Below are positions 341-59,933 of a DNA stretch of 64,000 nt, one piece after another. Made by a program: the position numbers and the translations under genes. This stretch comes from Bacteroidales bacterium (GTDB lineage Bacteria; Bacteroidota; Bacteroidia; Bacteroidales; NBLH01): contig JAXLTR010000005.1 of NCBI GenBank assembly GCA_046329965.1, forward strand, positions 371,385-435,384. Reading direction: 5' to 3'. A model generated the notes under the pieces. The model was not told the origin of the DNA. It saw only the letters and a program-made list of their open reading frames with translations, and ran no database searches. The first letter of the stretch is position 1, and every line of letters starts with the position of its first letter.

Positions 341-2563
341 TCAGTTTTTTGTACCCCATTTTTTATCAGGCCTCTCTCCCATCACAAGCTCCAGTTTGCC
401 TCCCTGCATAATATCAGTATGTTTGATAAAAGGCACATTTAAATCCTTTCCATTCAGCCTGGCAGATTGTATGTATTTGTTCTTTTTTGAGCAGGTTTTA
501 GCCTTTATAACAAATTTTTTTCCATCGGGCAGGATAATCTCCACTGATTCAAAAATCGGACTTCCAATGGCGTATTCTCCGCTTCCGGGTGTAACCGGAA
601 AAAATCCCATGGCCGAAAAAACGAACCACGAACACAACCCGCCTCCATCTTCATCGCCGGGTATGCCTAAAGGTCTGTCGTCGAACCACATGTCCATTAT
701 TTCGCGAACCCGGCGTTGGGTCTTCCAAGGTTCACAGGCATAATTGTACAGGTAAGGAATGTGCATGGAAGGTTCATTGCCGGCAACAAATTGTCCATTA
801 AGCCCAGTGGCATCAGGAAACTGACCCATAAATTGCCATTTCGAAATCCGTGTTGCTTCATTGAATAAAAGGTCGAGACGGTTTACAAAAACTTCGTTAC
901 CTCCCAGTAAATCAATTAATTCATGAATATTATGGGGTACAAAAAAATTCCAGGTCCAGGCATTGTTTTCAGCATAATACATACGTGCACCCACACCTCC
1001 CGAAAGTTGCGGATCGAAAGGCGTTATAAATTTTCCATTTTCCATTTTAGGCGCAAAAAAGCCATTGTTTGGATTGAAAAGGTTTTTGTAATTCTCTGAT
1101 CTTTTCATGAAATAATTGTAATCGTCTGTTTTACCCAGGGTTTTTGCCAGCTGAGCAAGGCACCAGTCGTCGTAACTGTGCTCAAGGGTTACCGCCACTG
1201 ATTGTCGCTTTTCAAAACCATCCACCATCGAAACAGATTCAACACTGTCGGCAGGAAGCGCGGGGAAATATCCGTTTGCCAGGTAGAAACTGTCGAGCCG
1301 GCACATAGGGCCCGAACGCCAGGGCAGCATGGTGGCATGGAGTGCATTTTTCCTCAATCCTTCGTAAGCCTTTTCAACATTAAAATTTCTGATTCCCTTC
1401 TGGTAGCAGTCCCAGACAAGGGCAGCAGAATGGAATCCAATCATGGCCGGAAAATCGCCGTACACCTGGGGAAAACCCGGCATCCAGCCACTTTGTTCAT
1501 ACATCAGGGTATACGAATTCACCATATCCGATTGTAAATCAGGGTTCAGAATGGTCATTAACGGGTGCAGCGAACGGTAGGTATCCCACAACCAGTCGTC
1601 CACAAAAAAAGCCCTGCCATTGTCGTTGTGTACCTTATCATCGAAACCACTGAAATATTTTCCTTCTTCCGAAATGTTCACCATACGCTCATAACATCGG
1701 TAAAGCGAAGTATAGAAAATTCTTTTTTGCCTTTCGGTTCCCCCTTTTACAATAATTTTTCCAAGCGACTGCTGCCATTCTTTTTGGCTTGCTGATTTTA
1801 TTTTTTCAAATTTTATACCACTGGTTTCGCTGTGCAGGTTTCTGGCAGCCTGTTCTTCGCTGATGTATGATATTCCAATCCTGATTTCAACTGGTTTTTC
1901 AGTTTTACCAAAATTCAGGAACAGGCCAACATGTGTACCTGAAATTTCGCTTCCCTGGTTTATTTTATTTGCGGCAATTGTTCCCGAACTTTGCAACGGC
2001 TGGCTTATTTCGGCATGAAAATATTGTTTTATATTTTCAAATTCTTCCCAACCGTGTACCCTGTCGTTTTCGAGTTTTAAAAAAGCCTTGTCATTAGACC
2101 TGAAAATCAAAGAACACGAATCGGCCTTGTTGTAATCGAACCTGTAAATAACAGCTTTTTCAGTGGTGGTCCAGTCGGCAGTGATATTGTAATCTTCGAG
2201 AAAAACCCTGTGGTACCAGGGATGAACTTCTTCCAAATCATGATCGTAAACCGAAGCAGTTTCATCGCGTGTGGTTTTTAATTTCCCGGTAAGGGGCATT
2301 ATCTCGGTTACTTGACTATTGCGGTAAGCTGGCATATTTAGCGCGAAGCCATAAATTTTATCGCTGAGGTACCTGTCGTTAAGTCCGGGCCGGGTAACCG
2401 GAAAAACCCTCACCATGCTGTTGGGCCTGTGAACCGTGGGTGCTTTGGTGGTAAGCAGTGGTGCAACAGTGCCAATATTGGGATCGACTAATTGGGTTAC
2501 GTCATTGCCGGAACAGGTAAGCAAAAATGCCAAAACCGGTAAGATAAAGTATTTTGTATTCAT
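341..2563 (-). CDS. glycoside hydrolase family 92-like protein (putative alpha-mannosidase), secreted
   Basis: 740-aa ORF with N-terminal signal peptide. Blocks VDPNIGT, YDHDLEEVHPWYHRV and DDWLWDTYRSLHPL resemble conserved GH92 blocks (NPFIGT, Y.H..E.A.PGYY.V, WDTYRA.HPL). Family-level call only. Confidence 0.5.
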   Translation of the reverse strand: MNTKYFILPVLAFLLTCSGNDVTQLVDPNIGTVAPLLTTKAPTVHRPNSMVRVFPVTRPGLNDRYLSDKIYGFALNMPAYRNSQVTEIMPLTGKLKTTRDETASVYDHDLEEVHPWYHRVFLEDYNITADWTTTEKAVIYRFDYNKADSCSLIFRSNDKAFLKLENDRVHGWEEFENIKQYFHAEISQPLQSSGTIAANKINQGSEISGTHVGLFLNFGKTEKPVEIRIGISYISEEQAARNLHSETSGIKFEKIKSASQKEWQQSLGKIIVKGGTERQKRIFYTSLYRCYERMVNISEEGKYFSGFDDKVHNDNGRAFFVDDWLWDTYRSLHPLMTILNPDLQSDMVNSYTLMYEQSGWMPGFPQVYGDFPAMIGFHSAALVWDCYQKGIRNFNVEKAYEGLRKNALHATMLPWRSGPMCRLDSFYLANGYFPALPADSVESVSMVDGFEKRQSVAVTLEHSYDDWCLAQLAKTLGKTDDYNYFMKRSENYKNLFNPNNGFFAPKMENGKFITPFDPQLSGGVGARMYYAENNAWTWNFFVPHNIHELIDLLGGNEVFVNRLDLLFNEATRISKWQFMGQFPDATGLNGQFVAGNEPSMHIPYLYNYACEPWKTQRRVREIMDMWFDDRPLGIPGDEDGGGLCSWFVFSAMGFFPVTPGSGEYAIGSPIFESVEIILPDGKKFVIKAKTCSKKNKYIQSARLNGKDLNVPFIKHTDIMQGGKLELVMGERPDKKWGTKN

Positions 2564-2719
2564 AATTAAAATTTGTAGTTCCTGAAATCCTGCTTAACCT
2601 GGTTATAGACTAAATATTCTGAAGAACAGGATGTAACTACAAATTTAAGCAAAGAATTTGATTTGTTCCGGTTTGGACCAAATTAAAAGATCAAACATTG
2701 CCTGTGAATGCCCAAAGAA

Positions 2720-3679
2720 TTATTCTTCGATAAATACCGGTGATAATTGTGATTTATAAGTGGTGTCGGTTAATTGTTTTTTCTCTTTGGTTTCCCAGTT
2801 CATGAGTGTGATATGGAATTGACTTTCTTTATTGTCGGAACTGTTAAAAACAAGCCATTTCCCATCGGGACTCCAGTCGTGCCAACCTTCTGAATCCGGA
2901 TTATCGATAAGTTTCCATTGTTTTTTGCCGTCGGGGGTTATGGCAAAAATACTGTGCCGGCCATCCTGCATCGAAACATAGGAAATGAAATTTTCTGTAG
3001 GGTGCCAGCGTGCCGAACCCGCCCTGTAACCGTAATCTTTTGCAGACGGGTTATTTTCAGGATAATGTGTAAGTTGGGTAAGTCTGCTGCCGTCTTCGTT
3101 CATCAGGTACAATTCTTCATGAGTGGCCCTGTCTCTCCTTTTTTTCTTGTAACTGAACACAATTTTTTTTCCATCGGGTGAAAAACAGGGATCACGGAAT
3201 AAGGCTGCGGTATCGTTTGTAATTTGCCTGTAATTGCCTGTTTTTGTGTTAATAATAAAAAACTGAAACCGGACTTCTTTTCCTTTTCTTCCGGCAACTA
3301 CTATTTCTTCACCGTTGTTTCTGCAACTCATCCAGCTGTCTTCTAATTGCAATTGGCTGATTTTCTTTACATTGTTCCCATTGGCGTCCGTTTCGTAAAG
3401 GAAAAAACAGCGGTAACAGGTATCGCGATCACTAATAAAGAACAAACGGTTTTTATAAGCAGTATAAGTCCAGGCCACGTCATCGTTATTGAGAATGTTT
3501 TTCTTTCCCGATCCATCAAAGTTCATTTTTATAATTTCCCAATCGTCTTTGGTGGTATCAGGCAAATGAATGTTGTAGGCGATGCTTAATTTTTTCGTAT
3601 TGCTTTTTATTATTATTTGGGCTGTTCCGACTGAATAGAACAGAAAACAAATTGAAAACAAGGCCAGTATTTTCTTCAT
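2720..3679 (-). CDS. PD40/TolB-like WD40 beta-propeller repeat protein, secreted
   Basis: 319 aa with signal peptide. Repeated SPDGKK/SPDGKWLVF-type PD40 motifs. 4-nt ATGA overlap with the downstream gene. Confidence 0.6.
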   Translation of the reverse strand: MKKILALFSICFLFYSVGTAQIIIKSNTKKLSIAYNIHLPDTTKDDWEIIKMNFDGSGKKNILNNDDVAWTYTAYKNRLFFISDRDTCYRCFFLYETDANGNNVKKISQLQLEDSWMSCRNNGEEIVVAGRKGKEVRFQFFIINTKTGNYRQITNDTAALFRDPCFSPDGKKIVFSYKKKRRDRATHEELYLMNEDGSRLTQLTHYPENNPSAKDYGYRAGSARWHPTENFISYVSMQDGRHSIFAITPDGKKQWKLIDNPDSEGWHDWSPDGKWLVFNSSDNKESQFHITLMNWETKEKKQLTDTTYKSQLSPVFIEE

Positions 3680-4251
3680 GATTTATGTGTTCGTTTATAG
3701 GATATGCTTAAAAGTTCCATTGCACTTTCATTCAGCTGATTTGCTTCTTTAATAATAATCATGTGCGAAATGCGCGGCATTGGGCCTGTAAGTTTTGATT
3801 TTTGAATGCTTTCATTAAATTGTAAATCACCTAAATCAAGCCCCAACCTAATTTCGCCGGGTTTTACATTTATGGCCGCAAATTCCCGGATTGCAGTAAA
3901 TGAGAAATACGTTTTTTTAGGAATTAATTGTGTTCCATTAAAGGATGAAATGATTTTTCCGGAAATAAGGTCAAACAACGGGCGCATTTCAGGGCATTTT
4001 GTAAACTGGTTTTCGATCAGGGCATTTGGATTGTTATAAACAGGATTTCCATTGTTAAGGTAGATTCCGGCAATAAATTGAGACTGCATATGGTTTAATT
4101 TGTGTACCTTTTTTAACCATTCAAGAATTTCGTTACTTTTTTGCATTCCTGTTGCCTTAACGAGTAAGAGCCATTCTTGCAAAGAATTACCCGTAACCGA
4201 TTTTGCAGTTTCAATAAATTCTTTTTCCAATTCTGCTGATGTTTTTGCCAT
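3676..4251 (-). CDS. DUF4287/DUF5655 domain protein
   Basis: 191-aa ORF. N-terminal MAKTSAELEKEFIETAKSVTG segment is typical of DUF4287-family proteins. Function unknown. Confidence 0.5.
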   Translation of the reverse strand: MAKTSAELEKEFIETAKSVTGNSLQEWLLLVKATGMQKSNEILEWLKKVHKLNHMQSQFIAGIYLNNGNPVYNNPNALIENQFTKCPEMRPLFDLISGKIISSFNGTQLIPKKTYFSFTAIREFAAINVKPGEIRLGLDLGDLQFNESIQKSKLTGPMPRISHMIIIKEANQLNESAMELLSISYKRTHKS

Positions 4252-4270
4252 GATTTTAATTTTTACAAAT

Positions 4271-4419
4271 CAACGTCGTTTAGTTAGTAAAACATCTTAT
4301 TTCAATTAATAATTGGTGTATCTATCTTGGTGTATTGGGGATTTTGTGGCCCTATATTATGCCACCAAAACACTAAAACACCAAATTTTCACCAAAAATT
4401 TCTTAACTAAACAGCATTG
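4271..4419 (+). mobile_element. MITE-like element copy A (diverged), 149 bp, flanked by perfect 10-bp direct repeat TTTTACAAAT (4261-4270 and 4420-4429)
   Basis: Termini caacgtcgtttag ... ctaaacagcattg are imperfect 13-bp inverted repeats. The internal hairpin GTGGC-N10-GCCAC and CACCAAA(T) direct repeats are shared with copies B and C. Lies 9 bp upstream of the start codon of the 3676..4251 gene. Confidence 0.65.
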
Positions 4420-4431
4420 TTTTACAAATTC

Positions 4432-5316
4432 TTATTTCTGTGGTTTGAATTCTAAAATTTCATCGCGTTTTGGAGATGAAACGTATTGTTTTTTATTTTT
4501 CCCTTTTTTATCCATTATCCAAATATCAGAATTTTCTGCTACCCTTGTATATGCAATATATTTGCCGTCGGGTGTCCAGCGGGGCCATCGGTTATCCAAT
4601 GTATCAGAAGTTAATTGTTTAATATTACTTCCATCCGTATCCATCATATAAATATCAGCTTTCCCATTTAAAAAATAATGACAAACCAACTTTTTACCGT
4701 CGGGTGAAATATCTAAAGCTCCGTCATTTCCAATTCTGTTCGTTATTCTTGTGTGGTAACTTCCTGATGTATCAGTAACAAATATTTCGCTGTTTGTTAT
4801 ATTATTGGCAGTATCTTTATCCATAAAAGAAGAATAAAATATTCTTACTCCATCGGGATGGAAAGTAGCCGACCCGTCTAACCTGTCGTTGTTTGTTATT
4901 CTGGTCGTTTTTTTTGTGGCCAAGTTGGTTAAATAAATTTCATTTTGTTTGTGATCGGCATTTGAAACATATAAAATACATTTTTCATCCGGAGAGAATG
5001 AAGGTCCGTATTGGTTTATCGTGTCATTGGTTAATCTTTCAGTAGATTTGGTATCCGTATTATACAGAAAAAGATCATATTGTTTGTTAATTAGTTTTGC
5101 AAACAGGATAAACTGCCCGTCCGGACTCCATTTGATTCCGTAATCCACAGGTTTATCATTGGTTATATTAACCGATTCGTTATTGACGGATGAAACATAA
5201 ATATCGGAATTTCCGTTTCTATCAGAAAAAAAGGCATATTCGTATTTGATTGTACCGCAGGATACAAAGAATAAAAATCCTATAACGGACAGATATTCAA
5301 TTCGTTTTTTCAACAT
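4432..5316 (-). CDS. PD40/TolB-like beta-propeller repeat protein, secreted
   Basis: 294 aa with signal peptide. Repeated DISPDGKK / WSPDGQ / WTPDGKY PD40 motifs. Confidence 0.6.
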   Translation of the reverse strand: MLKKRIEYLSVIGFLFFVSCGTIKYEYAFFSDRNGNSDIYVSSVNNESVNITNDKPVDYGIKWSPDGQFILFAKLINKQYDLFLYNTDTKSTERLTNDTINQYGPSFSPDEKCILYVSNADHKQNEIYLTNLATKKTTRITNNDRLDGSATFHPDGVRIFYSSFMDKDTANNITNSEIFVTDTSGSYHTRITNRIGNDGALDISPDGKKLVCHYFLNGKADIYMMDTDGSNIKQLTSDTLDNRWPRWTPDGKYIAYTRVAENSDIWIMDKKGKNKKQYVSSPKRDEILEFKPQK

Positions 5317-5331
5317 TTTACTTTAATTAAA

Positions 5332-5742
5332 TTATCGCCAGGCTCCTAATATAAAGCCTATTAATGTAAAATAAACGGTAATATAACCCCCGTTTATTAA
5401 AATATACTTCCACGAGCGTTGCTCAAACAGGGCTACTACAGCAAATATTAAAGCAGAAAATCCAAATCCGGCAAGAAAACCTGCCATTGCACCCCAACTG
5501 GCAGTGGTTTTATCATCACCCAGAAAAAAAGCAAGGTTGTAACTAATTATAAGAGAAAGAATAAAACTAATACCATACGTTTTAGCCAGGTTAAATTTTT
5601 GTTTTACAATTTCTTCTGTCAAGTTGTTTTCTTTCATCCATGCTTTGTAAAAAAGCAAAGGGGAATACCAGATTGCCCCCACTACCAGGTTGGATGCAGC
5701 GCAAACCAGCACTGCCCAATGATTAATGTACATATTTTCCAT
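5332..5742 (-). CDS. DUF1761 family membrane protein
   Basis: 136 aa with 4 predicted TM segments. Begins MENMYINHWAVLV..GAIWYSPLLF, characteristic of DUF1761. Confidence 0.5.
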   Translation of the reverse strand: MENMYINHWAVLVCAASNLVVGAIWYSPLLFYKAWMKENNLTEEIVKQKFNLAKTYGISFILSLIISYNLAFFLGDDKTTASWGAMAGFLAGFGFSALIFAVVALFEQRSWKYILINGGYITVYFTLIGFILGAWR

Positions 5743-5810
5743 GGTTCTATGATTAAATTTATTTTCAAAAATAGCAGTATATGATAAAGAAATATTGGAA
5801 AAAATTTACC

Positions 5811-6629
5811 TCATCCTACAGCAATATAATTGGTAAATTCACTTTGCATTTTAAGGTACTGATTTGGTGTAAATCCCGAAAACGCTTTGAAATCATTAAT
5901 AAAATGGGCCTGGTCATAATATCCGCTTTCAAATGCAATTTCTGTCCAGTCAGCGAATTTTTTGGCTTCAATTTCCCTTATGGCTTTCTGAAAACGGATA
6001 ATTTTCAAAAACGATTTTGGTGTTAAACCAACATTTTCCCTGAATATTTTGATAAAATGTTTTTGCGAATACCCGACTTTACCTGATAAATGGCTGATTG
6101 ATAGCTGATGAGGGTTTTTTAAAATCAGGTTTACCGAGTAGTCTATAAACGGATTTAGAACCAATTTGCCGGCAAAAGATTTTGTAAGATATTTTTCAGC
6201 AAACTGAAACTTTTGCTGAGCTGTTGAACATTCAAGTAAAGTTTCGCGCATGTTCAGAATTTCATTCGACATCACCAGTTCACCGTCCACGACAAAATCA
6301 GTGAGTTCGTTCATGGGCATTTCCACAAAGGGATAAGCTTTGCCTTTTTGAAAATAGATAATGAACATCTCGCTGTCGCGTCCCGAAGGAATAGTAATAT
6401 ATTTTTCACGAATTCCTGAAAACCAGACATTTCTGCACGACTGGATTTCTTTTAAAGAGTTGTTGTCGTAAATGTATTTGGGGTAATCGGTAAGGTCAAA
6501 AACAACATAGGTATATCCGTCAGGCAAAAACCGGTCTACCGAATGTTCGGGGTTATATCCTTTATAATAAACAAAATGCTCAATAAAATGATTAAGAGGT
6601 GGCGCCGGTATGTAATTTTCGAATATCAA
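5811..6629 (-). CDS. AraC family transcriptional regulator
   Basis: 272 aa. C-terminal HTH_AraC signature (HFIKIFRENVGLTPKSFLKIIRFQKAIREIE ... YDQAHFINDFKAFSGFTP). Confidence 0.75.
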   Translation of the reverse strand: MIFENYIPAPPLNHFIEHFVYYKGYNPEHSVDRFLPDGYTYVVFDLTDYPKYIYDNNSLKEIQSCRNVWFSGIREKYITIPSGRDSEMFIIYFQKGKAYPFVEMPMNELTDFVVDGELVMSNEILNMRETLLECSTAQQKFQFAEKYLTKSFAGKLVLNPFIDYSVNLILKNPHQLSISHLSGKVGYSQKHFIKIFRENVGLTPKSFLKIIRFQKAIREIEAKKFADWTEIAFESGYYDQAHFINDFKAFSGFTPNQYLKMQSEFTNYIAVG

Positions 6630-6691
6630 ATATCAGTTAATTGTTTGGTTATAAATTTAAAGATACTAAAAATACTATTAATACTTCCCAT

Positions 6692-8257
6692 TCAAGGCCG
6701 GTTATTCTTCAAACACCTGACAGATAAGAATAATTCTTTTAGGATTGCAGTTAACCCGGCTCCCTTATAATTTAAAGTTTCGGTCGGACGGTAAACATTT
6801 AAATACCAAGCGGTATTTTTAACTACAACATTGTCGTCAGATTCAGTCCAAAAACAGGCAAGAGTATTTAATCCAGATATTATGTCTACTATGACATACC
6901 CTGCAAACCGAACTGAAAATTGAGAGAGCCCCCCTTCATTAAGGACTTCAAATAATTCAGCCTGGTTGGATATCCCACCCAACTGGTCTAATAGTAACTG
7001 AAAATCTGATTTCGCAGGTAATTTCCAGCCTGGTGGACAAACCTGTTGGGCTGTTTCCCAGTTATACCAATACCCATATTTCTTTAAATCATCAGGATTT
7101 TTAGATTTAACCCAGCCATTTGTGCTCTGGTAAGCCAGATTTTCAGCCATCCATACCTGACCACCAATTTTTACCACTTTGTATTGCTTTCCATCCCGAG
7201 GGTCGATTAATTTTTCATTAAGAATTGTCCCTTTCCTGCTTTTGGCCATTAAATTTGTGAACCGGTTTTGAATGATGACAAAATTTTTACGAAATGGTTC
7301 AGAACCCCTTATTTCAAGGATATGTTTCCCCGGAGCCAAATTATTTATGGTCAGTGTCCGTTTTTCATCAGTAACATCCCCATGTTTTATACTGTCAATG
7401 AAAACCTCCCCTGTTATTTCAGATTCAAATTTTAAACCCATGGTTGACTTTTCAGTATTATCATAAATGTTCCCCTGCTGGTTTTCGATTTCATTACTGA
7501 TTACAGAAGCTGATTTTTTAGTGAAGTAAAATTCCCCTGTCAGTTTGGTCCATTCCTGTGGACTTTGGTTTCCCCCACTGGCTTTTTGCACATCCACACG
7601 GGTATTTTTAAAAACTGTTTCAATGGGGATAGGTTTTGAAAGGTGTTTCACCAGTTTTTCGGTGAAAAGCCCGTTGCTCCCTTCGCCATCACTGGCGGTG
7701 GCCCCTTCGCTGGTGGCAAAAGCTATAATAGTGCCACTTCCCGGGTTCATGGCCTTAAATCCCCTTGCCCCACTCCTTGCCCACGAACGGAATGGGTTAT
7801 TCCGGCAGGCATCCAGTATAACGATATTTGTATTTTGAGGATATTCTTCAAATTTTGATACCACTTCATTTACCGAAATAGCCTCAAAACTTACCATGTC
7901 CTGGGTATTCATGGTGGCATCAACCGGTATAAGGTAATTTACCCCGTTTACCTGTACACCGTGCCCTGCATAGAAAAACAAAGCCACATTGTAATTGCCA
8001 AGCTTGGACCAGAAATCGGTAATGGCTTGGGCCATTTGGGTCCGATTGGCATTTATCTTTTTAATTACTGTAAATCCAAGGCCCTGAAGGGTGGAAGCCA
8101 TCAGGTTGGCATCGTTCACCGGATTTTTAAGGGGTGCGTTATTATAGGTGTTGTTTCCAATAATTAAAGCAATGCGTTTTTCAATATTTTGGGAAAAACT
8201 ACTGATAATTATAAAAAAAAATACTGATAAACTAACAAATTTTTTCATTCCACTCAA
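6692..8257 (-). CDS. secreted caspase-family (peptidase C14) protein fused to a C-terminal Fibrobacter-succinogenes-major-paralogous (FISUMP) domain
   Basis: 521 aa with signal peptide. Caspase His/Cys dyad context FFYAGHGVQ ... IVILDACRNNPF. C-terminal KIGGQVWMAENLAY ... YNWETA ... CPPGWKLP motif typical of the TIGR02145-type FISUMP domain. Confidence 0.7.
   Translation of the reverse strand: MSGMKKFVSLSVFFFIIISSFSQNIEKRIALIIGNNTYNNAPLKNPVNDANLMASTLQGLGFTVIKKINANRTQMAQAITDFWSKLGNYNVALFFYAGHGVQVNGVNYLIPVDATMNTQDMVSFEAISVNEVVSKFEEYPQNTNIVILDACRNNPFRSWARSGARGFKAMNPGSGTIIAFATSEGATASDGEGSNGLFTEKLVKHLSKPIPIETVFKNTRVDVQKASGGNQSPQEWTKLTGEFYFTKKSASVISNEIENQQGNIYDNTEKSTMGLKFESEITGEVFIDSIKHGDVTDEKRTLTINNLAPGKHILEIRGSEPFRKNFVIIQNRFTNLMAKSRKGTILNEKLIDPRDGKQYKVVKIGGQVWMAENLAYQSTNGWVKSKNPDDLKKYGYWYNWETAQQVCPPGWKLPAKSDFQLLLDQLGGISNQAELFEVLNEGGLSQFSVRFAGYVIVDIISGLNTLACFWTESDDNVVVKNTAWYLNVYRPTETLNYKGAGLTAILKELFLSVRCLKNNRP
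7530..8257. repeat. duplicated ~730-bp segment (caspase-domain coding region), copy 1 of 2
   Basis: Roughly 90% nucleotide identity to 9030..9756 by direct comparison. Identity drops abruptly upstream of 7530/9030. Confidence 0.8.
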
Positions 8258-8259
8258 TT

Positions 8260-9756
8260 TTATTCAATTTTTATACATCGGACTGATAATCCACAATCGT
8301 TCCTGTTTTTTTCAATTGCCATTTTCAATTTCAGATTGGTAATGCCAAAATAAAAAACGAGCTGATTCTGATCACTAGAGGCAGTCCAATATGCCTCTTC
8401 GTCATTAAGATACATATAAGCCCCGGATAAAGGTATTTTGAAACCAGCAAATGAAGGAGAAAAACTCGCTCCTTTTCCATTGACCAAGGAGTTATATCTT
8501 TCTTCAGAAGTATTGCCTAGATAATTAAATAATTTTTGCACATCTTCCTTCGAGGGAAGTTTCCATCCAGGAGGACATACAGTTTTTGCCGATTCCCAGT
8601 CATATAAGTAGCCATAATTTTCAATATTTTTCGAATCATCATCGTATACCCAACATCCTTTTTCAAGTTTTAGTGCCATGTTTTGGGTCATCCATACCTG
8701 GTCCCCTATTTTTGCATAGGAATAGGTTTTGTTATTTCGTCTGTCATATAAAACTGAATTCAGGTTATCAAATGAAAAATTTGTTGTTTTCCCCTCTGCT
8801 ACATAGATTTCTCCAGTTTTTTTATCTTCTCCTTCAAGGACGATCGAATGTTTGCCAACAGGGATATCCTTAAATATATTTCCTTTTGATTTTGAAGCCA
8901 GGAATCCAATTTTATTTCCATCAATGTAGAGAAAACCTCTCGTTTCACTGTCGATTGAAATGTTGCCGTATTTTGTCATTTCATTATCAGTCGTCTCCGT
9001 ATTCACTTGAATTTTTGATTTTACGAAAAAAAATTCCCCTGTCAGCTTGGTCCATTCCTGCGGACTTTGGTTTCCCCCACTGGCTTTTTGCACATCCACA
9101 CGGGTATTTTTAAAAACCGTTTCAATAGGAATTGGTTTTGAAATATGTTTTACAAGCTTTTCGGTAAATAACCCGTTATTCCCTTCGCCATCACTCGCAG
9201 TAGCCCCTTCGCTGGTTGCAAAGGCTATGATTGTCCCGCTTCCCGGGTTCATGGCCTTAAATCCACTGGCCCCGCCTCTTGCCCACGAGCGGAAAGGGTT
9301 ATTACGGCAGGCATCTAATATAACAATATTTGTATTTTGTGGATATTCTTCGAATTTAGATACTACCTCATTCACCGATATAGCCTCAAAGCTTACCATG
9401 TCCTGGGTATTCATGGTAGCATCAACCGGGATCAGGTAATTTACCCCGTTTACCTGTACTCCATGGCCTGCAAAGAAAAACAAAGCCACGTCGTAATTAC
9501 TCAGCTTGGACCAAAAATCGGCAATGGCCTGGGCCATTTGTACCCTGTTGGCATTCACTTTTTTAATCACTGTAAAACCAAGCCCCTGCAAGGTAGTAGC
9601 CATCAGGTTAGCATCATTCACCGGGTTTTTAAGGGGTGCGTTACTATAGCTGTTGTTTCCTATAATCAGGGCAATACGTTTATCATTGGTTTGGGATATC
9701 ATTGTATTTGCAAAATGTATTATTAATAGGGAACAAATAAACTTCTTCATATTCAA
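8260..9756 (-). CDS. secreted caspase-family (peptidase C14) protein with C-terminal FISUMP domain; tandem paralog of 6692..8257
   Basis: 498 aa with signal peptide. Same caspase block (FFFAGHGVQ, IVILDACRNNPF). C-terminal KIGDQVWMTQNMAL ... YDWESA ... CPPGWKLP. Confidence 0.7.
   Translation of the reverse strand: MNMKKFICSLLIIHFANTMISQTNDKRIALIIGNNSYSNAPLKNPVNDANLMATTLQGLGFTVIKKVNANRVQMAQAIADFWSKLSNYDVALFFFAGHGVQVNGVNYLIPVDATMNTQDMVSFEAISVNEVVSKFEEYPQNTNIVILDACRNNPFRSWARGGASGFKAMNPGSGTIIAFATSEGATASDGEGNNGLFTEKLVKHISKPIPIETVFKNTRVDVQKASGGNQSPQEWTKLTGEFFFVKSKIQVNTETTDNEMTKYGNISIDSETRGFLYIDGNKIGFLASKSKGNIFKDIPVGKHSIVLEGEDKKTGEIYVAEGKTTNFSFDNLNSVLYDRRNNKTYSYAKIGDQVWMTQNMALKLEKGCWVYDDDSKNIENYGYLYDWESAKTVCPPGWKLPSKEDVQKLFNYLGNTSEERYNSLVNGKGASFSPSFAGFKIPLSGAYMYLNDEEAYWTASSDQNQLVFYFGITNLKLKMAIEKNRNDCGLSVRCIKIE
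9030..9756. repeat. duplicated ~730-bp segment (caspase-domain coding region), copy 2 of 2
   Basis: Roughly 90% nucleotide identity to 7530..8257. Confidence 0.8.
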
Positions 9757-10435
9757 AAGAATTTTAAAACCAATTAAAAATAAAAATTTTCCAAAACTAA
9801 AATTGTTATAAAACTTAAAAGTGAATTTTCCATTATGGAAATTAATAAACCAATTAACTTCAAATCATAATCAAAGAGTGAATCTATATATTTATTCTCA
9901 TTATTTTTCTAATGCCAAAATTTAGAATCAATTTAGAAAAAATGTCAGTCTATTAAACCCTTCTTAATATCCAATGTGTACTCCATCTCATAATTATTAA
10001 AGAATCTAATTCACAGAAAGAGGAATCCACATTTTAAGAAATATTGGATTTTACCCGTAAACGCTTTTAGCGTTGTAACTAAAGTTACTATTATTTCTGG
10101 TTTTGTATTGGTATCTTTCGATAAGCTTAAGTTAAATATGGTTGTTTGCCAGGTAAAAAAATTAATTGCCCAACTATTATCAAAAGAAAGAATACCAGCT
10201 TATCCTGAAGATCTTTCGGTTTTGTAATTCGTAAATTTGTTATTTGGAATGGATTTAAATAAACCCGGGTTTGTCTTTAGAAAAATTCTAATGATAATTT
10301 TGGGATAAACGCCGGTAATAGCTCAAAATTCGGTTATAATTTCCATAAACCTGGTAAAAGCCGTTGTTTTTTAGTAAAATGTCCGTATGGCAGGTCAGCT
10401 CGTCAGTCCAGTGCAGCTGGCCAGGGTTACATTCC

Positions 10436-11203
10436 CTACTTTGAAATATCCAGAAAATTATCCTGTATTCTTTCCTTCCATTTTTTGTATTCGCGTTGTA
10501 AAAGCAGTCTGTTAATTTCTCTTCCGTGCGATGGAAGAAATATATTACATTTTGTTTCAAGCAGTTTTCCCCAACTTTCAACCATTAAGGCAACATCATT
10601 CGCAAATGGAGGAAAAACAGAACCGCTAAAAACGCCAAACATGGCATCGCCGACAAGGGCTATTTCATCATCAACAATTAAACTCATCGAACCCGTAGTG
10701 TGGCCTGGGGTGTGGATTAAACAGGCTTTAATTCCAAATTCTTTTAGATCATAAATTTCATCCAGGAGTAAATCCGGAATGCAAGGTTCGTAATTAAATT
10801 TTGGCGAAAGTTTTTTACCTACAAATTTCATCAATGGTTTGGTAAAAAATGTCGTCCCGTTTGGTAAAATATTCTCTCCTGCAGTCAGATAACCGGCTTC
10901 GTTTTTATGGATAATTACAGGAATTTTATATTTCTCTTTTACTTTATTTGCATTGGCTGCATGGTCAAAATGAGCATGGGTTAAAATCAGGCAGTCGATG
11001 TTTTTTAACGAAAGTTTGACAATTTGCTTTTGTAACTTTGCCCAAAGTCGCGAAACTGAGGCATCAACCATTAAATTATTTATTCCGTTTGACACTATAA
11101 AAACATTGCATCTCCCTGATAAAACACGGATTATTTCATAACCATTTTTAGTTTTCCATTTTTTCAATTTAAAACAGGTTTTTATTTTAGGATTCAATGT
11201 CAT
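10436..11203 (-). CDS. MBL-fold metallo-hydrolase
   Basis: 255 aa with HxHxDH motif (LTHAHFDHAAN). The predicted ATG (11201-11203) lies inside the terminal repeat of MITE copy B, so the true start is uncertain. Confidence 0.7.
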   Translation of the reverse strand: MTLNPKIKTCFKLKKWKTKNGYEIIRVLSGRCNVFIVSNGINNLMVDASVSRLWAKLQKQIVKLSLKNIDCLILTHAHFDHAANANKVKEKYKIPVIIHKNEAGYLTAGENILPNGTTFFTKPLMKFVGKKLSPKFNYEPCIPDLLLDEIYDLKEFGIKACLIHTPGHTTGSMSLIVDDEIALVGDAMFGVFSGSVFPPFANDVALMVESWGKLLETKCNIFLPSHGREINRLLLQREYKKWKERIQDNFLDISK

Positions 11204-11348
11204 TTAGATAATGATTTTTTTCGTGGAAGTTGGTGTCTTTGTGTTTTAGTGGCGAAAACACTTTTGCCACCAAATCACCAAATCACAAAATCTCACCAAA
11301 TCTTCAATAAATTGATATTTTATATTTGTCATTAACTAAACAACATTG
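11195..11348 (+). mobile_element. MITE-like element copy B, 154 bp, 13-bp TIRs (caatgtcatttag / ctaaacaacattg), 10-bp flanking direct repeat TTTTAGGATT / TTTTAAGATT (9 of 10)
   Basis: About 93% identical to copy C over the full length. Contains hairpin GTGGC-gaaaacactttt-GCCAC and CACCAAAT direct repeats. Overlaps the first three codons of the MBL hydrolase ORF. Confidence 0.8.
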
Positions 11349-11405
11349 TTTTAAGATTTCAAAATAATTGTTTACAGTTGGTTTTATATAGTTCAACCCT
11401 AGAAA

Positions 11406-12596
11406 CTAACGGCCAAATTCTTTTTCAATCAAATTCACAGTTAGTTCCACGCCGTTTACATTTTTAAGTTTTTGTGCCATTTCAACAGCATTTTTCTTAT
11501 AGGTTTCATTGTTTATACATTCCATAATGGCATTAGAAATGGCCCGGGTACTGATTTTTTTAAAATTGCAGGTTTTGGGGCCAAGGTTTAGTTTCACTAT
11601 CTGGTCACGGTTCATAAACTGGTCGCCCATAAAAGGAAAGGCAGCATGCGGAACACCGGCCCTTGCCACTGCCGACATGGTTCCGGTTCCACCATGGTAC
11701 ACTACTGCCACCAATCGCGGAAAGAGCAGCTCAAAAGGCATGTCGTCAACATATAAAATATTTTCATTATTATTTTCGGGCAAATTGGCCCATCCTTTCG
11801 ATACAATTAAGCGTTGTTGGGTTGTTTGTTGCACTTCTATAAAAATCTGGCCGTATTTTTCGGGACCTGTAATGGGGTTGCTTCCAAATCCAATATAAAC
11901 AGGTGGTTTTCCGGAATTAATGAAATTTTCAACCCCATCAGGCAGCTGGTTTTTCGATGGTAAAATCATGTAGGCCGTCTGTGTAAATGAAAAAGCAACT
12001 TCTTTACGGGCTTCAACAAGTTCCCTGTCACAGGCCATTATAACATTATCGCCCAGCCAATGGTGCCAGGCATCCTTAATGGGAGGAAGCTGGTATTTTG
12101 CCCTGTTTTTATTGATAAATCCCCTTATAAACAGGTTTATCATCTTTCGTCCAAAAGCAAACATCATCCTGTTTTTTAACGGGTCTTCAGGAGTGGTTCC
12201 CAGCAGAATAGGATAAAAAGCCACAAGCCGGTATGGAACTTTTAAAATATCTGCAGCTGTTTGTACCCCCATCACTATGCCTGTTGCCAATACCAGGTCA
12301 ACCGGTTTTATCAGTTCCGGTAAAATATTAATTTGATCCCCTATCAATTTCTTCCCCTGTTTTGGTGAAATTTTTACAGCCACCCCACCTTTCTGCTTTT
12401 GAGGGTTTTCGTTTATCTGTTTTTTAATTTCGGGGCCGAATTTAATAAACCTGCAATTGTTGGTTACTACAAGTTGTTCATTTTCAGGAGGGGCGCAAAT
12501 TACTACATCGTGTCCATTTCCGGTAAGGCCTTTAGCAAGGGCCACCATAGGCTGAACATCGCCGCGTGTGCCGAGAATTACAATGGCTATTTTCAT
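11406..12596 (-). CDS. glycosyltransferase family 1 (MGT/UDP-glucuronosyl-transferase-like)
   Basis: 396 aa. N-terminal MKIAIVILGTRGDVQPMVALAKGL (GT1 N-domain). C-terminal HGGTGT ... donor-binding block. Confidence 0.65.
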   Translation of the reverse strand: MKIAIVILGTRGDVQPMVALAKGLTGNGHDVVICAPPENEQLVVTNNCRFIKFGPEIKKQINENPQKQKGGVAVKISPKQGKKLIGDQINILPELIKPVDLVLATGIVMGVQTAADILKVPYRLVAFYPILLGTTPEDPLKNRMMFAFGRKMINLFIRGFINKNRAKYQLPPIKDAWHHWLGDNVIMACDRELVEARKEVAFSFTQTAYMILPSKNQLPDGVENFINSGKPPVYIGFGSNPITGPEKYGQIFIEVQQTTQQRLIVSKGWANLPENNNENILYVDDMPFELLFPRLVAVVYHGGTGTMSAVARAGVPHAAFPFMGDQFMNRDQIVKLNLGPKTCNFKKISTRAISNAIMECINNETYKKNAVEMAQKLKNVNGVELTVNLIEKEFGR

Positions 12597-12767
12597 AAAA
12601 CTTTTTTAAATTTTACTTTCAGGGATCCACAAGTTTAAAATTGTACCGGACAAGTACTTTCAACAAGTTGTTTAATTATATTTATCTCATATTTAAATAC
12701 ATAGAATAGCCGGCTTCTTCTAAATAAAAATTTATTTTTTATGGAAATAGTTTTAAAACAGGAACCT

Positions 12768-13694
12768 TTAATAAGCCACTTTCCTGTCAAGCCTTCTTTT
12801 TAGTTCATTTGCATAACACTTTCCAATTGTATCCCTGTTTTGTTTCAACCAATCTGTAAGCTTTGTTTTTCCGGCAGGGGGTCCGTCAGAATAAAGCAAA
12901 TCGGCCTTAAGTCCTTTTATTTCCTGGCGGGTTATCAGTTTATCCCCTTTTATCAGGCCCACAATTTTCGAAATCCATAACCCAATTTCATCTGGCAATG
13001 GAAAAACTTTCCGCTCCTTTCCCAACATTATTGCCGACATGGCTTTAATCAGTTCTTTATAGGTAAAAATTTCAGGACCGGTGGCATCAATAACCGCATT
13101 GCTCGATTTAAATCCTTGTTCTACAGCCAGATCGGCAAAATCTTCCACAAAAATGGGCTGGAGCTTATAATTTCCATTTCCAAACATGCCAAACACGGGG
13201 AAATTTCTTATCATCCATGCAATGTTATTGATGAGTATGTCTTCTTTTCCAAAAATAACGCCCGGCCGTAAAATGCTGTACGAAATTCCTGTGGCAGCCA
13301 GTTCTTCTTCAAGAATGCCTTTGCCTGAATAATATTCCAGTGGAGAGTCCTTATCGGGTTTAAGAATGCTGGTATGCACAATCCGGCCAACACCGGCAAT
13401 TTTGGCTGCCTTAAAAAGTTTTATTGTATTTTCTACAGCTTCGGAATGTCTGAATTTTCGGTGGTTAAACCTTACCCAGTAAGTGTTGTACAACACAGAT
13501 ACACCTTGCAGGGATTCGGCGAGTTGCGCGGGTTTATCAAAATAAAAAGGGGAAACCTGTATTTTGTTACCGAAATCATTTTTTCTATCCAGCGAATTGG
13601 TGAGTGTTTTAACATTAAATCCTTTATTTAAGAGCTTTTGGGCTATGTATTTGCCGGTGTATCCGAATGCGCCGGTAACAGCATGGATTTCCAT
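12768..13694 (-). CDS. NAD(P)-binding NmrA-like / atypical SDR family protein
   Basis: 308 aa. N-terminal Rossmann motif VTGAFGYTGKYIAQKLLNKGFNV. Confidence 0.6.
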   Translation of the reverse strand: MEIHAVTGAFGYTGKYIAQKLLNKGFNVKTLTNSLDRKNDFGNKIQVSPFYFDKPAQLAESLQGVSVLYNTYWVRFNHRKFRHSEAVENTIKLFKAAKIAGVGRIVHTSILKPDKDSPLEYYSGKGILEEELAATGISYSILRPGVIFGKEDILINNIAWMIRNFPVFGMFGNGNYKLQPIFVEDFADLAVEQGFKSSNAVIDATGPEIFTYKELIKAMSAIMLGKERKVFPLPDEIGLWISKIVGLIKGDKLITRQEIKGLKADLLYSDGPPAGKTKLTDWLKQNRDTIGKCYANELKRRLDRKVAY

Positions 13695-13734
13695 TTTAGT
13701 TATTTCGTTGTAAAAAAATATTCAATTAATAAAT

Positions 13735-14421
13735 TTACCTAACTGTTTCAGAATTGAAGTTTTCTCGTTGGTTTAAAATATCAATATAATATAATAAATC
13801 TTCAATACTAGCTTCATCTTCGCTATAATTTAGCCTCCCCTTTAGGTCTTCGTATAGATCAATAAGACGCAAAACATAATTCTTAGTCAGTTCAATGGGC
13901 AATCCAGAATTCATATCAAGAATATAATCAACTTTATGAACTTTTCCTTGATAAAAATTAGCACCGCCTGTTCCGTTCGAAAGAGTCGCAATCGACTGTG
14001 CAAACACAACTGCTGATATATATTCTCTTGCATTATCTCTTCTAATTTTCATTGCCCCTAATGTTACTCCTTTAAAGTAGTTGTATTTTTTTAAGGTTTG
14101 AAATTTTATGTACCCTGGTGCCATTCCAAATCTTTCAACATTCAAATAAAAAGTTCCATTGTTGTATATTCCCCAAACAATTTTTTTAATTGTCTTTTCT
14201 GAAATTTTATTATCTAATGGAGTAACTTTATAAAGTTCTGGAATTGACGAAGATTTTATTTCTTCAATTTGAATATTAAGAATATAAAAAGGTGAATTAT
14301 TCTTAAAATCAATGAAATTCCTATAAATACCGTTTTTAACAGAATCAATTTGACTAAAACCTTTTACGAAACTAATTGTCAAAAAAATGATTGACATTAA
14401 TTTTTTTTTTGTGAGGATCAT
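13735..14421 (-). CDS. hypothetical secreted protein in an AT-rich island; a poly-A10 tract lies at codons 4-7
   Basis: 228 aa with signal peptide. GC content is visibly lower than neighbours. 14401-14410 is T10 on + (A10 in the coding strand, encoding KKK). Confidence 0.4.
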   Translation of the reverse strand: MILTKKKLMSIIFLTISFVKGFSQIDSVKNGIYRNFIDFKNNSPFYILNIQIEEIKSSSIPELYKVTPLDNKISEKTIKKIVWGIYNNGTFYLNVERFGMAPGYIKFQTLKKYNYFKGVTLGAMKIRRDNAREYISAVVFAQSIATLSNGTGGANFYQGKVHKVDYILDMNSGLPIELTKNYVLRLIDLYEDLKGRLNYSEDEASIEDLLYYIDILNQRENFNSETVR

Positions 14422-58032: not shown

Positions 58033-58899
58033 TTAGAATTTTAGGTTTTCAATATCATCTCTGGTCAATCCGGTTAATTTAATAATTAAGTCTGATGGCA
58101 AGCCTTCTTTTAATCCTGTCCTTGCAATTTCAATCTTTTCCTCAATTTTTCCTTCCATCTTCCCTTCTTCTCTAGCCGTTTCCAAAGAATTTTTAATATC
58201 CCTGTAGTATTTTAAGCTATCTTCATATTCCTGGTATTCTGTTTGGCTGAATTTAGCAATTTCAGCAGTTTCAAACAGTTTCAGGAAAATGTTTTCTTTA
58301 AGTTTTTCAGGAATCCTATCAAGCTTATGAAGGTTTTTTAAAATGAACAACCATTTATCAAATTTTGTTTCAAGCTCTTCTGCCGATTTATTGAACTTAG
58401 GCATTTCTAAATAAATAAAAGTCAGCTTATCGTAAAATATCTTTTTTGTCTGGATGTCAGAGAGTTTAACATCATATCTCAGTTTTTCGGGCTGGTTCTC
58501 ATCTTCGTCGAAAATAAAGTCAAGTATTGCAATAGTGTAAACTTTTTTCAGTTCAAAATTCCATTCACTGCCAATTACAGCCTGTTCTCTGATTGGAAAT
58601 GTTGAGTAGTATACAGTTCTGTCCTTAAAGAATTTCTGCTTTGTTTTTTGTAATTCAACTATAAATTTTTCGCCCCGTTCGTTTGTGCAATAAAGATCAA
58701 AAATGGCTTTCCTATTCAATTCTGTGGTGGAAAGGTTTTCGTTTTTTAAATAAGTTAATTCAGTTATTTCACCTTGTTCCTGTCTGAGCAATTCATTCAG
58801 AAAGTCAAGCAGAAGGTCTTTGTTTGGCTCTTCACCAAATAGCCGCTTAAATCCGTAGTCAGTAAAAGGGTTTATAAATTTTTCCCTGAATTCGTACAT
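58033..58899 (-). CDS. PD-(D/E)XK nuclease family (Rpn/YhgA-like) putative transposase
   Basis: 288 aa. N-terminal PFTDYGFKRLFGEEPNKDLLLDFLNELL typical of the Rpn/PDDEXK_7 family that is abundant in Bacteroidota. Confidence 0.7.
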   Translation of the reverse strand: MYEFREKFINPFTDYGFKRLFGEEPNKDLLLDFLNELLRQEQGEITELTYLKNENLSTTELNRKAIFDLYCTNERGEKFIVELQKTKQKFFKDRTVYYSTFPIREQAVIGSEWNFELKKVYTIAILDFIFDEDENQPEKLRYDVKLSDIQTKKIFYDKLTFIYLEMPKFNKSAEELETKFDKWLFILKNLHKLDRIPEKLKENIFLKLFETAEIAKFSQTEYQEYEDSLKYYRDIKNSLETAREEGKMEGKIEEKIEIARTGLKEGLPSDLIIKLTGLTRDDIENLKF

Positions 58900-59040: not shown

Positions 59041-59583
59041 CTACTGGTATCTGAAATGAATTCCGATTATCCAAAGGGCCTTTATTTTTAATAAAAACAG
59101 GAATAAAACAATAAAAACAGTGCCTGCGAGTGCCAGGAAGTTTAAAAATTTCTGTGCCCTGTAACCATTGCGAAAAGCTTTTTCAATACCCATGTATACC
59201 AATAATCCAATTAAACCGCCAGCCGTATTGTTAATAATATCGGTTATATCAGCGGCCCCAACGCTTAAAATAAACTGGATAATTTCTATTGACAAACTGG
59301 TTAAAAAAAACAGGGGAATTTTTTTCCAAATAGTCCATTTTTTAAATAAAATTCCTGCATATACGCCCAGAGGTATAAAAATCAATGCATTTAAAACCAT
59401 TTCCATACTATTTGGTTTACCATTTTGATCGGTAGATTCGGCAAACGGAATAAGGTTTATCATTCTTTTGTCCATATACGAAAAGTGGACATCGAGTTTT
59501 AATATCAGTACCCAAACCAATACCAACAAATAAATGACGAATAATACGTTGGTTAATCTGTTTGCCTTATCATTTTCTTTCAT
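59041..59583 (-). CDS. VanZ-family membrane protein
   Basis: 180 aa. 4-5 TM. VanZ-like pattern (LNALIFIPLGVY ... ADITDIINNTAGGLIG). Confidence 0.6.
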   Translation of the reverse strand: MKENDKANRLTNVLFVIYLLVLVWVLILKLDVHFSYMDKRMINLIPFAESTDQNGKPNSMEMVLNALIFIPLGVYAGILFKKWTIWKKIPLFFLTSLSIEIIQFILSVGAADITDIINNTAGGLIGLLVYMGIEKAFRNGYRAQKFLNFLALAGTVFIVLFLFLLKIKALWIIGIHFRYQ

Positions 59584-59635
59584 AGCGTTACGCTGGAATT
59601 GTAATATTTTTCGGTGAAAATAGAAAATTAAATGG

Positions 59636-59789
59636 TAATGTCGTTTAGATAAGGATTTTTTTCGTGCAAGTTGGTGTCTTTGTGTTTTAGTGGCAGTAAC
59701 ACTTTTGCCACCAAATCACCAAATCACAAAATCTCACCAAATCTTCTATAAATTGATATTTTATATTTGTCATTAACTAAACGACATTT
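59636..59789 (+). mobile_element. MITE-like element copy C, 154 bp, 13-bp TIRs (taatgtcgtttag / ctaaacgacattt; inner 12 bp perfect), perfect 10-bp target-site duplication AATTAAATGG (59626-59635 and 59790-59799)
   Basis: Coordinates derived directly from the sequence. About 93% identical to copy B. Internal hairpin GTGGC-agtaacactttt-GCCAC. CACCAAAT direct repeats. TATATTTG motif near the right end. Confidence 0.85.
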
Positions 59790-59933
59790 AATTAAATGGC
59801 ATTTTGTATTTTCAAAAAGTGAAATCTCAGGATTATTTAAAAGAAGGCTACTCTTGTATGAAAAAAACATTATATCTTTATTTGAATCAGGATTTAAATC
59901 ATTTTTTAAAATTTTATTACCTATTGGGTTTAC

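Follow-up and report, generated by a model that had tools for sequence, protein, structure and literature searches.

Three copies of a MITE with IS4-subgroup-type ends and a palindromic core in a Bacteroidales genome, and its relatives across Bacteroidota

The window, i.e. the whole 64-kb stretch of DNA that was analysed, contains three copies of a MITE, 149–154 bp in size. Very probably the three copies represent an ordinary selfish, non-autonomous MITE, and their position before genes is as chance predicts. The initial annotation of this DNA had reported three MITE copies with target-site duplications (TSDs), and this was borne out by the search for paired ends and by the 10-bp TSDs described below; the interval 4261–4429, to which that annotation referred, is copy 1 together with both of its TSDs.

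Three copies of the element in the window

All three copies are bounded by terminal inverted repeats (TIRs) of ∼18 bp (cAATGTCGTTTAGTTAAG). The coordinates of the copies, their ends and the neighbouring features are listed in Table 1. The TSDs are 10 bp in length in all three copies; two of them are perfect and one has one mismatch. The TIR-to-TIR pattern AATGYYGTTTAG-N110–140-CTAAAYGACRTT has exactly three matches in the window, with 0 expected from shuffled sequences. In global alignment, copies 2 and 3 are identical at 144 of 154 positions, and copy 1 is far more diverged.

The element is non-coding; it has no internal ORF, and the ORFs that touch the copies are mechanical extensions. Short (below ∼300 bp) and non-coding, with TIRs, a TSD of fixed length and multiple dispersed copies, it shows features by which a MITE is recognised. 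Contigs assembled from short reads of the same organism end within the element, 138 nt upstream of the DUF4287 gene, as expected of a multi-copy repeat. For annotation, elements of this kind matter in two ways: they break short-read assemblies, and they create false N-terminal extensions, such as that of the MBL-fold hydrolase ORF described below.

Table 1. Positions of the three MITE copies, their internal features and the adjacent genes and promoter-like boxes in the window
Feature	Position	Strand	Remarks
DUF4287/DUF5655 gene	3676–4251	-	ATG at 4251
Copy 1, left TSD	4261–4270	.	TTTTACAAAT
MITE copy 1	4271–4419	-	149 bp; inverted relative to copies 2 and 3
Copy 1, TIRs	4271–4288; 4402–4419		CAACGTCGTTTAGTTAGT; CTTAACTAAACAGCATTG
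Copy 1, palindromic core	4313–4397	.	
Copy 1, left arm of core	4313–4318; 4327–4332; 4335–4340; 4343–4348		TTGGTG; TTGGTG; TTGGGG; TTTGTG
Copy 1, hairpin	4346–4350; 4351–4360; 4361–4365		stem GTGGC; loop; stem GCCAC
Copy 1, right arm of core	4363–4370; 4371–4378; 4379–4386; 4390–4397		CACCAAAA; CACTAAAA; CACCAAAT; CACCAAAA
Copy 1, right TSD	4420–4429	.	TTTTACAAAT; 2 nt from the stop codon (4432–4434) of the PD40-repeat gene
MBL-fold hydrolase start codon	11165–11167	-	TTG; 17 nt beyond the copy 2 TSD
Copy 2, left TSD	11185–11194	.	TTTTAGGATT
MITE copy 2	11195–11348	+	154 bp
Copy 2, TIRs	11195–11212; 11331–11348		
Copy 2, stems	11249–11253; 11266–11270		GTGGC; GCCAC
Copy 2, repeats	11268–11301		CACCAAAT/CACAAAAT
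Copy 2, -7-type box	11321–11328	+	TATATTTG, same box as in copy 3
Copy 2, right TSD	11349–11358	.	TTTTAAGATT; one mismatch to the left TSD
Near-consensus -7 box	11360–11367	-	TTATTTTG; 5/6 specified positions; putative native promoter element
VanZ-like gene	59041–59583	-	ATG at 59583
Copy 3, left TSD	59626–59635	.	AATTAAATGG
MITE copy 3	59636–59789	+	154 bp
Copy 3, TIRs	59636–59653; 59772–59789		
Copy 3, hairpin	59690–59711		
Copy 3, repeats	59709–59742		
Copy 3, -7-type box	59762–59769	+	TATATTTG; exact; in the long arm
Copy 3, right TSD	59790–59799	.	AATTAAATGG, identical to the left TSD

IS4-type ends and search for an autonomous partner

The IS4 subgroup has the end consensus -AATR--------WTW---- and direct repeats of 10–13 bp (Table 1 of PMC2266710). 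With AATG at positions 2–5 and TTA at positions 14–16, cAATGTCGTTTAGTTAAG fits this consensus. We also compared the MITE end cAATGTCGTTTAGTTAAGGA with the end of E. coli K-12 IS4, TAATGCCGATCAGTTAAGGA, and found that 15 of the 19 bases match; the E. coli K-12 IS4 copy, when read directly, has a 12-bp TSD. From its ends and TSD length alone, the element would probably be classed as an IS4-subgroup-type MITE.

A search for an autonomous IS with matching ends gave none in the window, in the 115 listed genome loci, in 10 metagenome loci or in 121 viral loci. A search of the 115 listed genome loci for lone or distant TIR pairs returned MITE-sized pairs alone, and tblastn of E. coli InsG against all loci and 120 viral loci gave nothing. 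When viral sequences were scanned with a 14-mer of the TIR, 120 matches were obtained, and neither a TIR pair nor an IS4-like gene was present at any of them; with a 17-mer of the TIR, one lone end was found, which adjoins a phage-repressor-like gene and is uninformative. An IS3-family element that lies beside a lone end (locus L128) is not the partner.

Relatives of the element across Bacteroidota

We scanned 185,579 species genomes with the TIR-to-TIR pattern and obtained at least 115 loci, with 118 elements among the matches listed. The listed loci are nearly all of Bacteroidota, including Draconibacterium, Chitinophagaceae, Bacteroidales, Saprospiraceae, Cytophagales and Salinivirgaceae. 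Beyond the 12 bases that are enforced by the pattern, the ends cAATGTCGTTTAGTTAAG / CTTAACTAAACGACATTg are almost invariant in the 118 listed elements. Nearly invariant ends extend across Bacteroidales, Marinilabiliales, Chitinophagales, Cytophagales and Saprospiraceae, whereas the cores are entirely different; among the listed elements they fall into 63 unrelated groups, including the two groups to which the window copies belong.

Enough flanking sequence was available for 119 elements (listed elements and window copies together). Perfect 10-bp TSDs flank 55 of them, and 80 have TSDs with at most one mismatch; the TSD always lies exactly 1 nt outside AATG...CATT. These duplications bear on the idea that the element is a REP/BIME-like or recombination-site repeat whose 10-bp flanking repeats are coincidental. 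Such a repeat would agree with the lack of a transposase partner among the loci searched, but the duplications around the 80 elements are unrelated to each other in sequence, and the ends fit the IS4-subgroup consensus. A reading without a transposon is effectively refuted by the TSD statistics and is, in our opinion, hardly credible.

Relatives that share the core of the window copies were found in one Paludibacter MAG, one Tangfeifania MAG, one lake Bacteroidia MAG and several metagenome contigs. The metagenome scan gave 10 loci, about 5 of which are true relatives; a scan of a plasmid collection for the subfamily gave no match.

Hairpin, repeats and palindromic core

A GTGGC...GCCAC stem with a loop of 10–12 nt is present in all three window copies. 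The initial annotation had noticed this conserved hairpin, and it holds not only for the three copies but also for nine aligned members of the subfamily. The direct repeats of CACCAAAT that it had listed are real as well; CACCAAAT occurs 13 times in the window, compared to 5.1 expected, and 7 of the 13 occurrences are within the three copies, where the repeats are spaced by 8, 8 and 10–11 nt. What had been missed is the complementary arm: the opposite side of the stem carries the reverse-complement repeats TTGGTG/TTTGTG/TTAGTG. The hairpin and the CACCAAAT repeats are parts of one imperfect palindrome, they do not form a one-sided array.

The nine aligned members come from the window and from other organisms. 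Their core is composed of CTTNGTG units, GTGGC, a variable loop, GCCAC and CACNAAG units. Five stem pairs are invariant in the alignment and one adjacent pair covaries, being T-A in four members, C-G in four and T-G in one; the N positions of CTTNGTG are mostly mismatched. The covariation gives weak support for a maintained hairpin, and the split into T-A and C-G could be a single event. Conservation of the core in the nine members could reflect some function beyond transposition.

For the window copies, either strand gives a long stem-loop, with energies of -33 to -40 kcal/mol and z scores of -3.8 to -5.4. The gene-sense RNA reaches -37 to -40 kcal/mol, which is 3–6 kcal/mol better than the antisense strand. 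We rejected this asymmetry as evidence for a sense-strand RNA; it is weak, and G.U pairing favours any G/T-rich strand by 3–6 kcal/mol.

Palindromic cores prevail throughout this MITE superfamily. With the TIRs removed, 46 of the 63 cores fold with z below -2, the median being -3.3; the palindromic core is a trait of the superfamily, whatever its sequence. Palindromy regardless of sequence argues against TTTGGTGA as a conserved protein site, and favours either a structure used in transposition or mere tolerance.

Orientation of the copies and of their relatives

The hairpin is located off-centre. Measured from the outer TIR end to the stem, the arms are 79 and 58 nt in copy 1; in copies 2 and 3 they are 58 and 82 nt. 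Copy 1 therefore has its long arm (79 nt) on the low-coordinate side, facing the start of the DUF4287 gene, while copies 2 and 3 have the short arm (58 nt) on the low-coordinate side and the long arm (82 nt) on the high-coordinate side; the arm next to the downstream minus-strand gene is the long one in copy 1 and the short one in the other two copies.

Alignments gave the same picture. In BLAST, copy 1 matches copy 3 end to end solely on the opposite strand (q2-148/s153-2, 69% over 153 nt, E 4e-17); on the same strand, the match extends over 72 nt of the palindromic core alone (E 1e-10). In the global alignment of copy 1, identical columns number 113 of 159 when it is inverted, compared to 103 of 176 when it is direct. 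Copy 1 has the opposite orientation to copies 2 and 3. BLAST, global alignment and arm lengths thus contradict the view that all three copies have the same orientation; the near-symmetry of the palindromic core accounts for the earlier miscall. Relative to the downstream gene, the window copies are split 1:2, which is a chance outcome at n = 3 for this genome.

The asymmetry of a short and a long arm is common to those same-core relatives in which both ends are present and intact; in the subfamily, the short arm is 57–59 nt and the long arm is 71–82 nt in length. The gene context of the relatives was assigned among the listed loci by a simple longest-ORF heuristic. Eighty-six related elements could be classified: 57 lie between co-directional, 16 between divergent and 13 between convergent genes, and one lies inside an ORF. 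Among the co-directional elements, 34 are nearer to the upstream stop and 23 are nearer to the downstream start, the medians being 62 and 84 nt.

Enrichment of one orientation upstream of genes had been proposed as a test of the element's role. Run on the listed relatives, this comparison detected no bias; the two orientations are split 3:7 in the largest subfamily (p 0.34), and 1:3, 1:2 and 2:1 in others. Within the hairpin subfamily, the long arm points toward the nearest start in copy 1, L066 and L103 (798 nt), and the short arm does so in copy 2. Both gene context and orientation of the relatives look random, with no departure from chance at what is low statistical power.

Insertion sites and neighbouring genes

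By a simple longest-ORF call, the window contains 49 ORFs, 30 on the minus strand and 19 on the plus strand. Copies 1 and 2 sit within an unbroken run of 12 minus-strand genes (341–14421). That the copies lie upstream of minus-strand genes, as the initial annotation stated, is correct as far as the positions go; for copies 1 and 2 it is automatic, since any intergenic insertion in the 12-gene run would do so. The distances given for two of the copies are also right: 9 nt separate the left TSD of copy 1 from the ATG of the DUF4287 gene, and copy 3 is 42 nt plus the TSD away from the ATG of the VanZ-like gene.

At copy 1, the two genes are now 180 nt apart; the element and one TSD account for 159 nt of this distance. 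Before insertion, the spacer between the PD40 stop and the DUF4287 start was 21 nt, which is too short for a typical promoter, so displacement of a native promoter is unlikely here. Copy 1 splits this intercistronic spacer and is probably co-transcribed as a long stem-loop.

The -7 box of Bacteroidetes promoters has the consensus TAnnTTTG. In the window, exact TAnnTTTG boxes are located 17–41 nt before the start in about 10 of the 49 called ORFs; judged by these positions, the box is clearly in use in this genome.

Copy 2 had been described as overlapping the start of the MBL-fold hydrolase gene, which is an artefact of the longest-ORF call. The ATG at 11201–11203 lies inside the TIR of copy 2 and extends the frame by 12 codons; it owes its presence at 11203 to a G-to-A departure from the TIR consensus. 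As deposited, the protein (MFN8256327.1, 243 aa, MKKWKTKNGYE...) starts at the TTG at 11167, and homologues of 231–243 aa, with M[EK][KR]W[KN]TKSGYE..., match this start, which is the real one. Before insertion, the spacer at copy 2 was 74 nt in length, and the TTATTTTG box was 28 nt upstream of the MBL start, within the 17–41-nt range of the window. Copy 2 now lies 1 nt plus the TSD downstream of this box; rather than pushing the promoter away, the insertion has probably given the MBL gene a longer 5′ leader. The divergent, putative promoter region that contains copy 3 measured 186 nt prior to insertion. An effect on the leader of an insertion 19–60 nt before a start is trivially true, and is no evidence of a selected function.

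Terminator, RNA-family and promoter tests

In the three copy regions, a terminator scan found 0 terminator-like sites, and no U-tract follows any stem. Rfam gave 0 matches in the window at the gathering score; the scores of copy 2 are at chance level (13–19 bits, compared to thresholds of 50–195). Folding and covariation had been suggested as a check on the hairpin; both strands fold well (z -3.8 to -5.4), and just 1 of 16 predicted pairs covaries.

These results can be set against a role at the RNA level, in which the co-transcribed stem-loop would attenuate or terminate transcription, serve as a processing site or stabilise the mRNA. RNA-level effects of such stem-loops have been described for Correia and ERIC elements. 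Copy 1 fills the former 21-nt spacer of an apparent operon and would, if this were true, uncouple DUF4287 from the upstream PD40 gene; the better folding of the gene-sense strand is in line with such a role. However, the empty terminator scan, the missing U-tracts and the absence of an Rfam match all speak against it, both strands fold well, as those of any palindrome do, and the single covarying pair could stem from one event. The effect would, moreover, be a by-product of insertion with no designed role, and we consider a dedicated RNA-level element unlikely.

As to promoters, none of the three copies contains an exact TAnnTTTG box on the gene-sense strand, and a sigma-70 promoter scan of the three copy regions gave none above shuffled sequences. 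The one exact box, TATATTTG, is present in copies 2 and 3; it points outward, away from the minus-strand genes, and in copy 3 it points toward the plus-strand ORF 59934–60431. Neither copy 1 nor the relatives elsewhere have it, and ∼0.2 exact boxes per element are expected by chance. The initial annotation had reasoned that displaced native promoters imply a promoter, 5′UTR or silencing role of the element. With an orientation that is not shared, a spacer of 21 nt at copy 1 and no gene-sense box, this reasoning is left unsupported.

The same data weigh on a broader proposal, namely that the element is an exapted regulatory cassette that supplies the downstream gene with an orientation-dependent promoter, a leader or a protein-binding array (TTTGGTGA). 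All three copies are located 19–62 nt from a start codon, the core motif is kept in relatives from other taxa, and the TTTG of the repeat resembles the -33 element of Bacteroidetes promoters. A precedent exists in the BrickBuilt MITE of Porphyromonas gingivalis, an exclusively intergenic element with bidirectional promoter activity in lacZ fusions, whose possible regulation of adjacent genes has been discussed (PMC4596501). Against the cassette, the copies have no common orientation, and the sole exact box faces away from the genes. The variable N in CTTNGTG and the different motifs of the sister subfamilies oppose one conserved binding protein, and 13 of the 86 listed relatives lie between convergent genes. 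Beyond the proximity to start codons, nothing supports the regulatory inference, and we judge a cassette of this type to be very unlikely.

Transposition and position of the copies

An ordinary selfish MITE, the reading that we prefer, would be mobilised in trans, presumably by a DDE transposase of the IS4 family (IS4 subgroup). The enzyme would recognise the ∼18-bp ends cAATGTCGTTTAGTTAAG, make cuts staggered by 10 bp, and insert the element into AT-rich targets of the type AATnnnnAtT. Between the ends, the core consists of about four TTNGTG units, GTGGC, the loop, GCCAC and about four CACNAAA units; most likely, this palindrome aids transposition in that it brings both ends of a very short DNA close to each other, or is merely tolerated. 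The copies lie before genes because AT-rich intergenic DNA is the preferred target and the sole place in which insertions survive, and also because two of the three are within a long gene run on one strand. Local effects on the neighbouring genes would then be by-products of insertion.

We also asked whether the distance between insertion site and -7 box is constant. There was no peak at the 88 reconstructed empty sites, where 21 boxes point toward the site and 13 point away from it, and a fixed distance was rejected.

Comparison with known elements

Correia elements of Neisseria are imperfect-palindrome MITEs of ∼100–155 bp, which are often located next to genes, are co-transcribed and can affect expression. 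Their TIRs are 26 bp in length and their target duplication is TA; they have been shown to contain outward promoters and IHF sites and to be processed by RNase III. Like them, the window MITE is an imperfect palindrome next to genes; different from them are the length of its TIRs and its TSD.

MIC231 cassettes are mobilised in trans by their cognate transposase. Like the window MITE, MIC231 of the Bacillus cereus group (cited in PMC2266710) is non-autonomous and has IS4-family ends; different from it, MIC231 is kilobase-sized, carries passenger genes, has ends of the IS231 subgroup (CAT...), lacks a palindromic repeat core and belongs to Firmicutes. The window MITE resembles E. coli IS4 and the IS4 subgroup in the end consensus, in 15 of the 19 bases of the inverted repeat and in its 10-bp TSD, which is within the range of 10–13 bp (PMC2266710). 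However, an IS of this subgroup is 1.4–1.65 kb in size and has a transposase gene, whereas the MITE is 150 bp in size, has none, and resides in Bacteroidota.

Two MITEs of Bacteroidota were also compared. BrickBuilt/MITEPgRS of P. gingivalis is likewise intergenic and contains short internal direct repeats, but it has IS5-type 12-nt TIRs (GAGACCTTTGCA), its TSDs are variable or absent, and it is restricted to the species; its tandem repeats are 23 nt in length, compared to the 8-nt palindromic array of the window MITE (PMC4596501). MITECca01 of Cardinium is also mostly intergenic; being derived from IS982 (ISCca4), about 240 bp in size and lineage-specific, it was rejected as a relative (PMC9769881). 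A census of prokaryotic MITEs catalogues those of Bacteroidota, with end sequences and IS family not discussed in the portion consulted (PMC11602168). A search of the literature for the TIR string found no paper that contains it, and the MITE family appears to be previously undescribed.

Target preference and heptanucleotide arrays

The reconstructed empty sites have the consensus AATnnnnAtT, and AAT recurs at 7-nt intervals in their flanks. Of 115 empty sites, 20 (17%) are located in tandem heptanucleotide arrays, and almost none are in arrays of other periods. In random intergenic windows from the same loci, heptamer arrays were found in 43 of 1500 (2.9%; Fisher OR 7.1, p 2e-9). The three copies in the window itself are located outside heptamer arrays.

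At two loci, L001 and L005, the host array is itself a palindrome, built from heptamer arrays and lacking TIRs, and the motif of the L005 host array is the same as that in the core of the L005 MITE. Although they do not prove it, the sequences at these loci suggest that cores may be captured target arrays. In a general form, the IS4-type end pair would be a phylum-wide carrier that repeatedly captures lineage-specific palindromic arrays from the tandem-heptamer hot spots in which it prefers to insert; we regard this as distinctly unlikely. The route of capture would be two insertions that flank an array, followed by mobilisation from their inner ends. If this were true, the CACCAAAT/TTGGTG core would be a captured, target-like array, and new MITE families would arise via target capture and not via internal deletion of an IS; in a stronger version, the arrays would be functional DNA or RNA modules that are spread by the element. 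Such a preference for heptanucleotide arrays may be unprecedented among IS4-type elements.

Ends, cores and target sites of the MITEs

Among the matches listed (L001–L115, genome loci with the same TIR pair), the same ends of ∼18 bp bound at least 63 unrelated cores in many Bacteroidota orders. Strong palindromes make up the majority of these cores, and several cores carry a widespread GTCACCCTGAGCG.AGTCGAAGGGTG-type repeat. In the same set, the target sites have the consensus AATnnnnAtT, and tandem heptanucleotide arrays are a preferred insertion target of these IS4-like MITEs; 20 of the 115 empty sites lie within such arrays, whereas the rate for random intergenic windows is 2.9% (OR 7.1, p 2e-9). 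The host array in L001 and L005 is itself a palindrome without TIR, similar in architecture to a MITE core.

Locus L056 contains a local cluster of four Draconibacterium-subfamily copies within 1.2 kb. The Bacteroidota-type MITE is also present on L067 (QFQQ01000050.1) and L001 (WYBG01000366.1), contigs labelled as Citrobacter freundii and Deltaproteobacteria MAGs, respectively, which may reflect mis-binning or horizontal transfer. A lone MITE-type end in L128 (oriented minus) adjoins one IS3-family element with orfA/orfB-like ORFs; probably, an IS inserted into a MITE.

Window copies and neighbouring genes

Copies 2 and 3 each carry TATATTTG, an exact, outward-facing Bacteroidetes-type −7 box, in the long arm. 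One unannotated ORF begins 164 nt downstream of the box of copy 3; its Pfam search gave no match. At copy 2, the start codon of the MBL gene in the source genome is TTG. A G-to-A change in the neighbouring TIR creates an in-frame ATG, which extends the mechanical ORF by 12 codons and is a pitfall for gene callers.

The MITE repeat also disrupts assemblies: two short-read Logan contigs of the same organism, L116 (SRR26348422) and L117 (SRR26348420), terminate inside copy 1; the break is 138 nt from the DUF4287 gene, on its upstream side.

A 'transposase' gene of the PD-(D/E)XK nuclease family (PF12784, E 4e-77) is located ∼700 bp from copy 3; nothing ties it to the MITE. One 300-nt direct repeat (88% identity) falls within two neighbouring ORFs, probably a tandem gene duplication.

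Coordinates of the features in the window and in related loci
Feature	Sequence	Position	Strand
−7 box, copy 2	window	11321-11328	+
−7 box, copy 3	window	59762-59769	+
Unannotated ORF	window	59934-60431	+
MBL start, TTG	window	11165-11167	−
TIR-derived ATG	window	11201-11203	−
'Transposase' gene	window	58033-58899	−
Direct repeat	window	7523-7822; 9025-9324	
ORFs with repeat	window	6692-8248; 8260-9750	−
MITE cluster	L056	6050-7255	
Cluster members	L056	6050-6192; 6624-6765; 6839-6980; 7114-7255	
Heptamer-array insertion, example	L023	566-709	
Same	L036	3804-3955	
Same	L035	243-376	
Same, further example	L005	3487-3627	
Same	L001	2913-3065	
Same	L105	3571-3710	
IS3-family element	L128	31-1461
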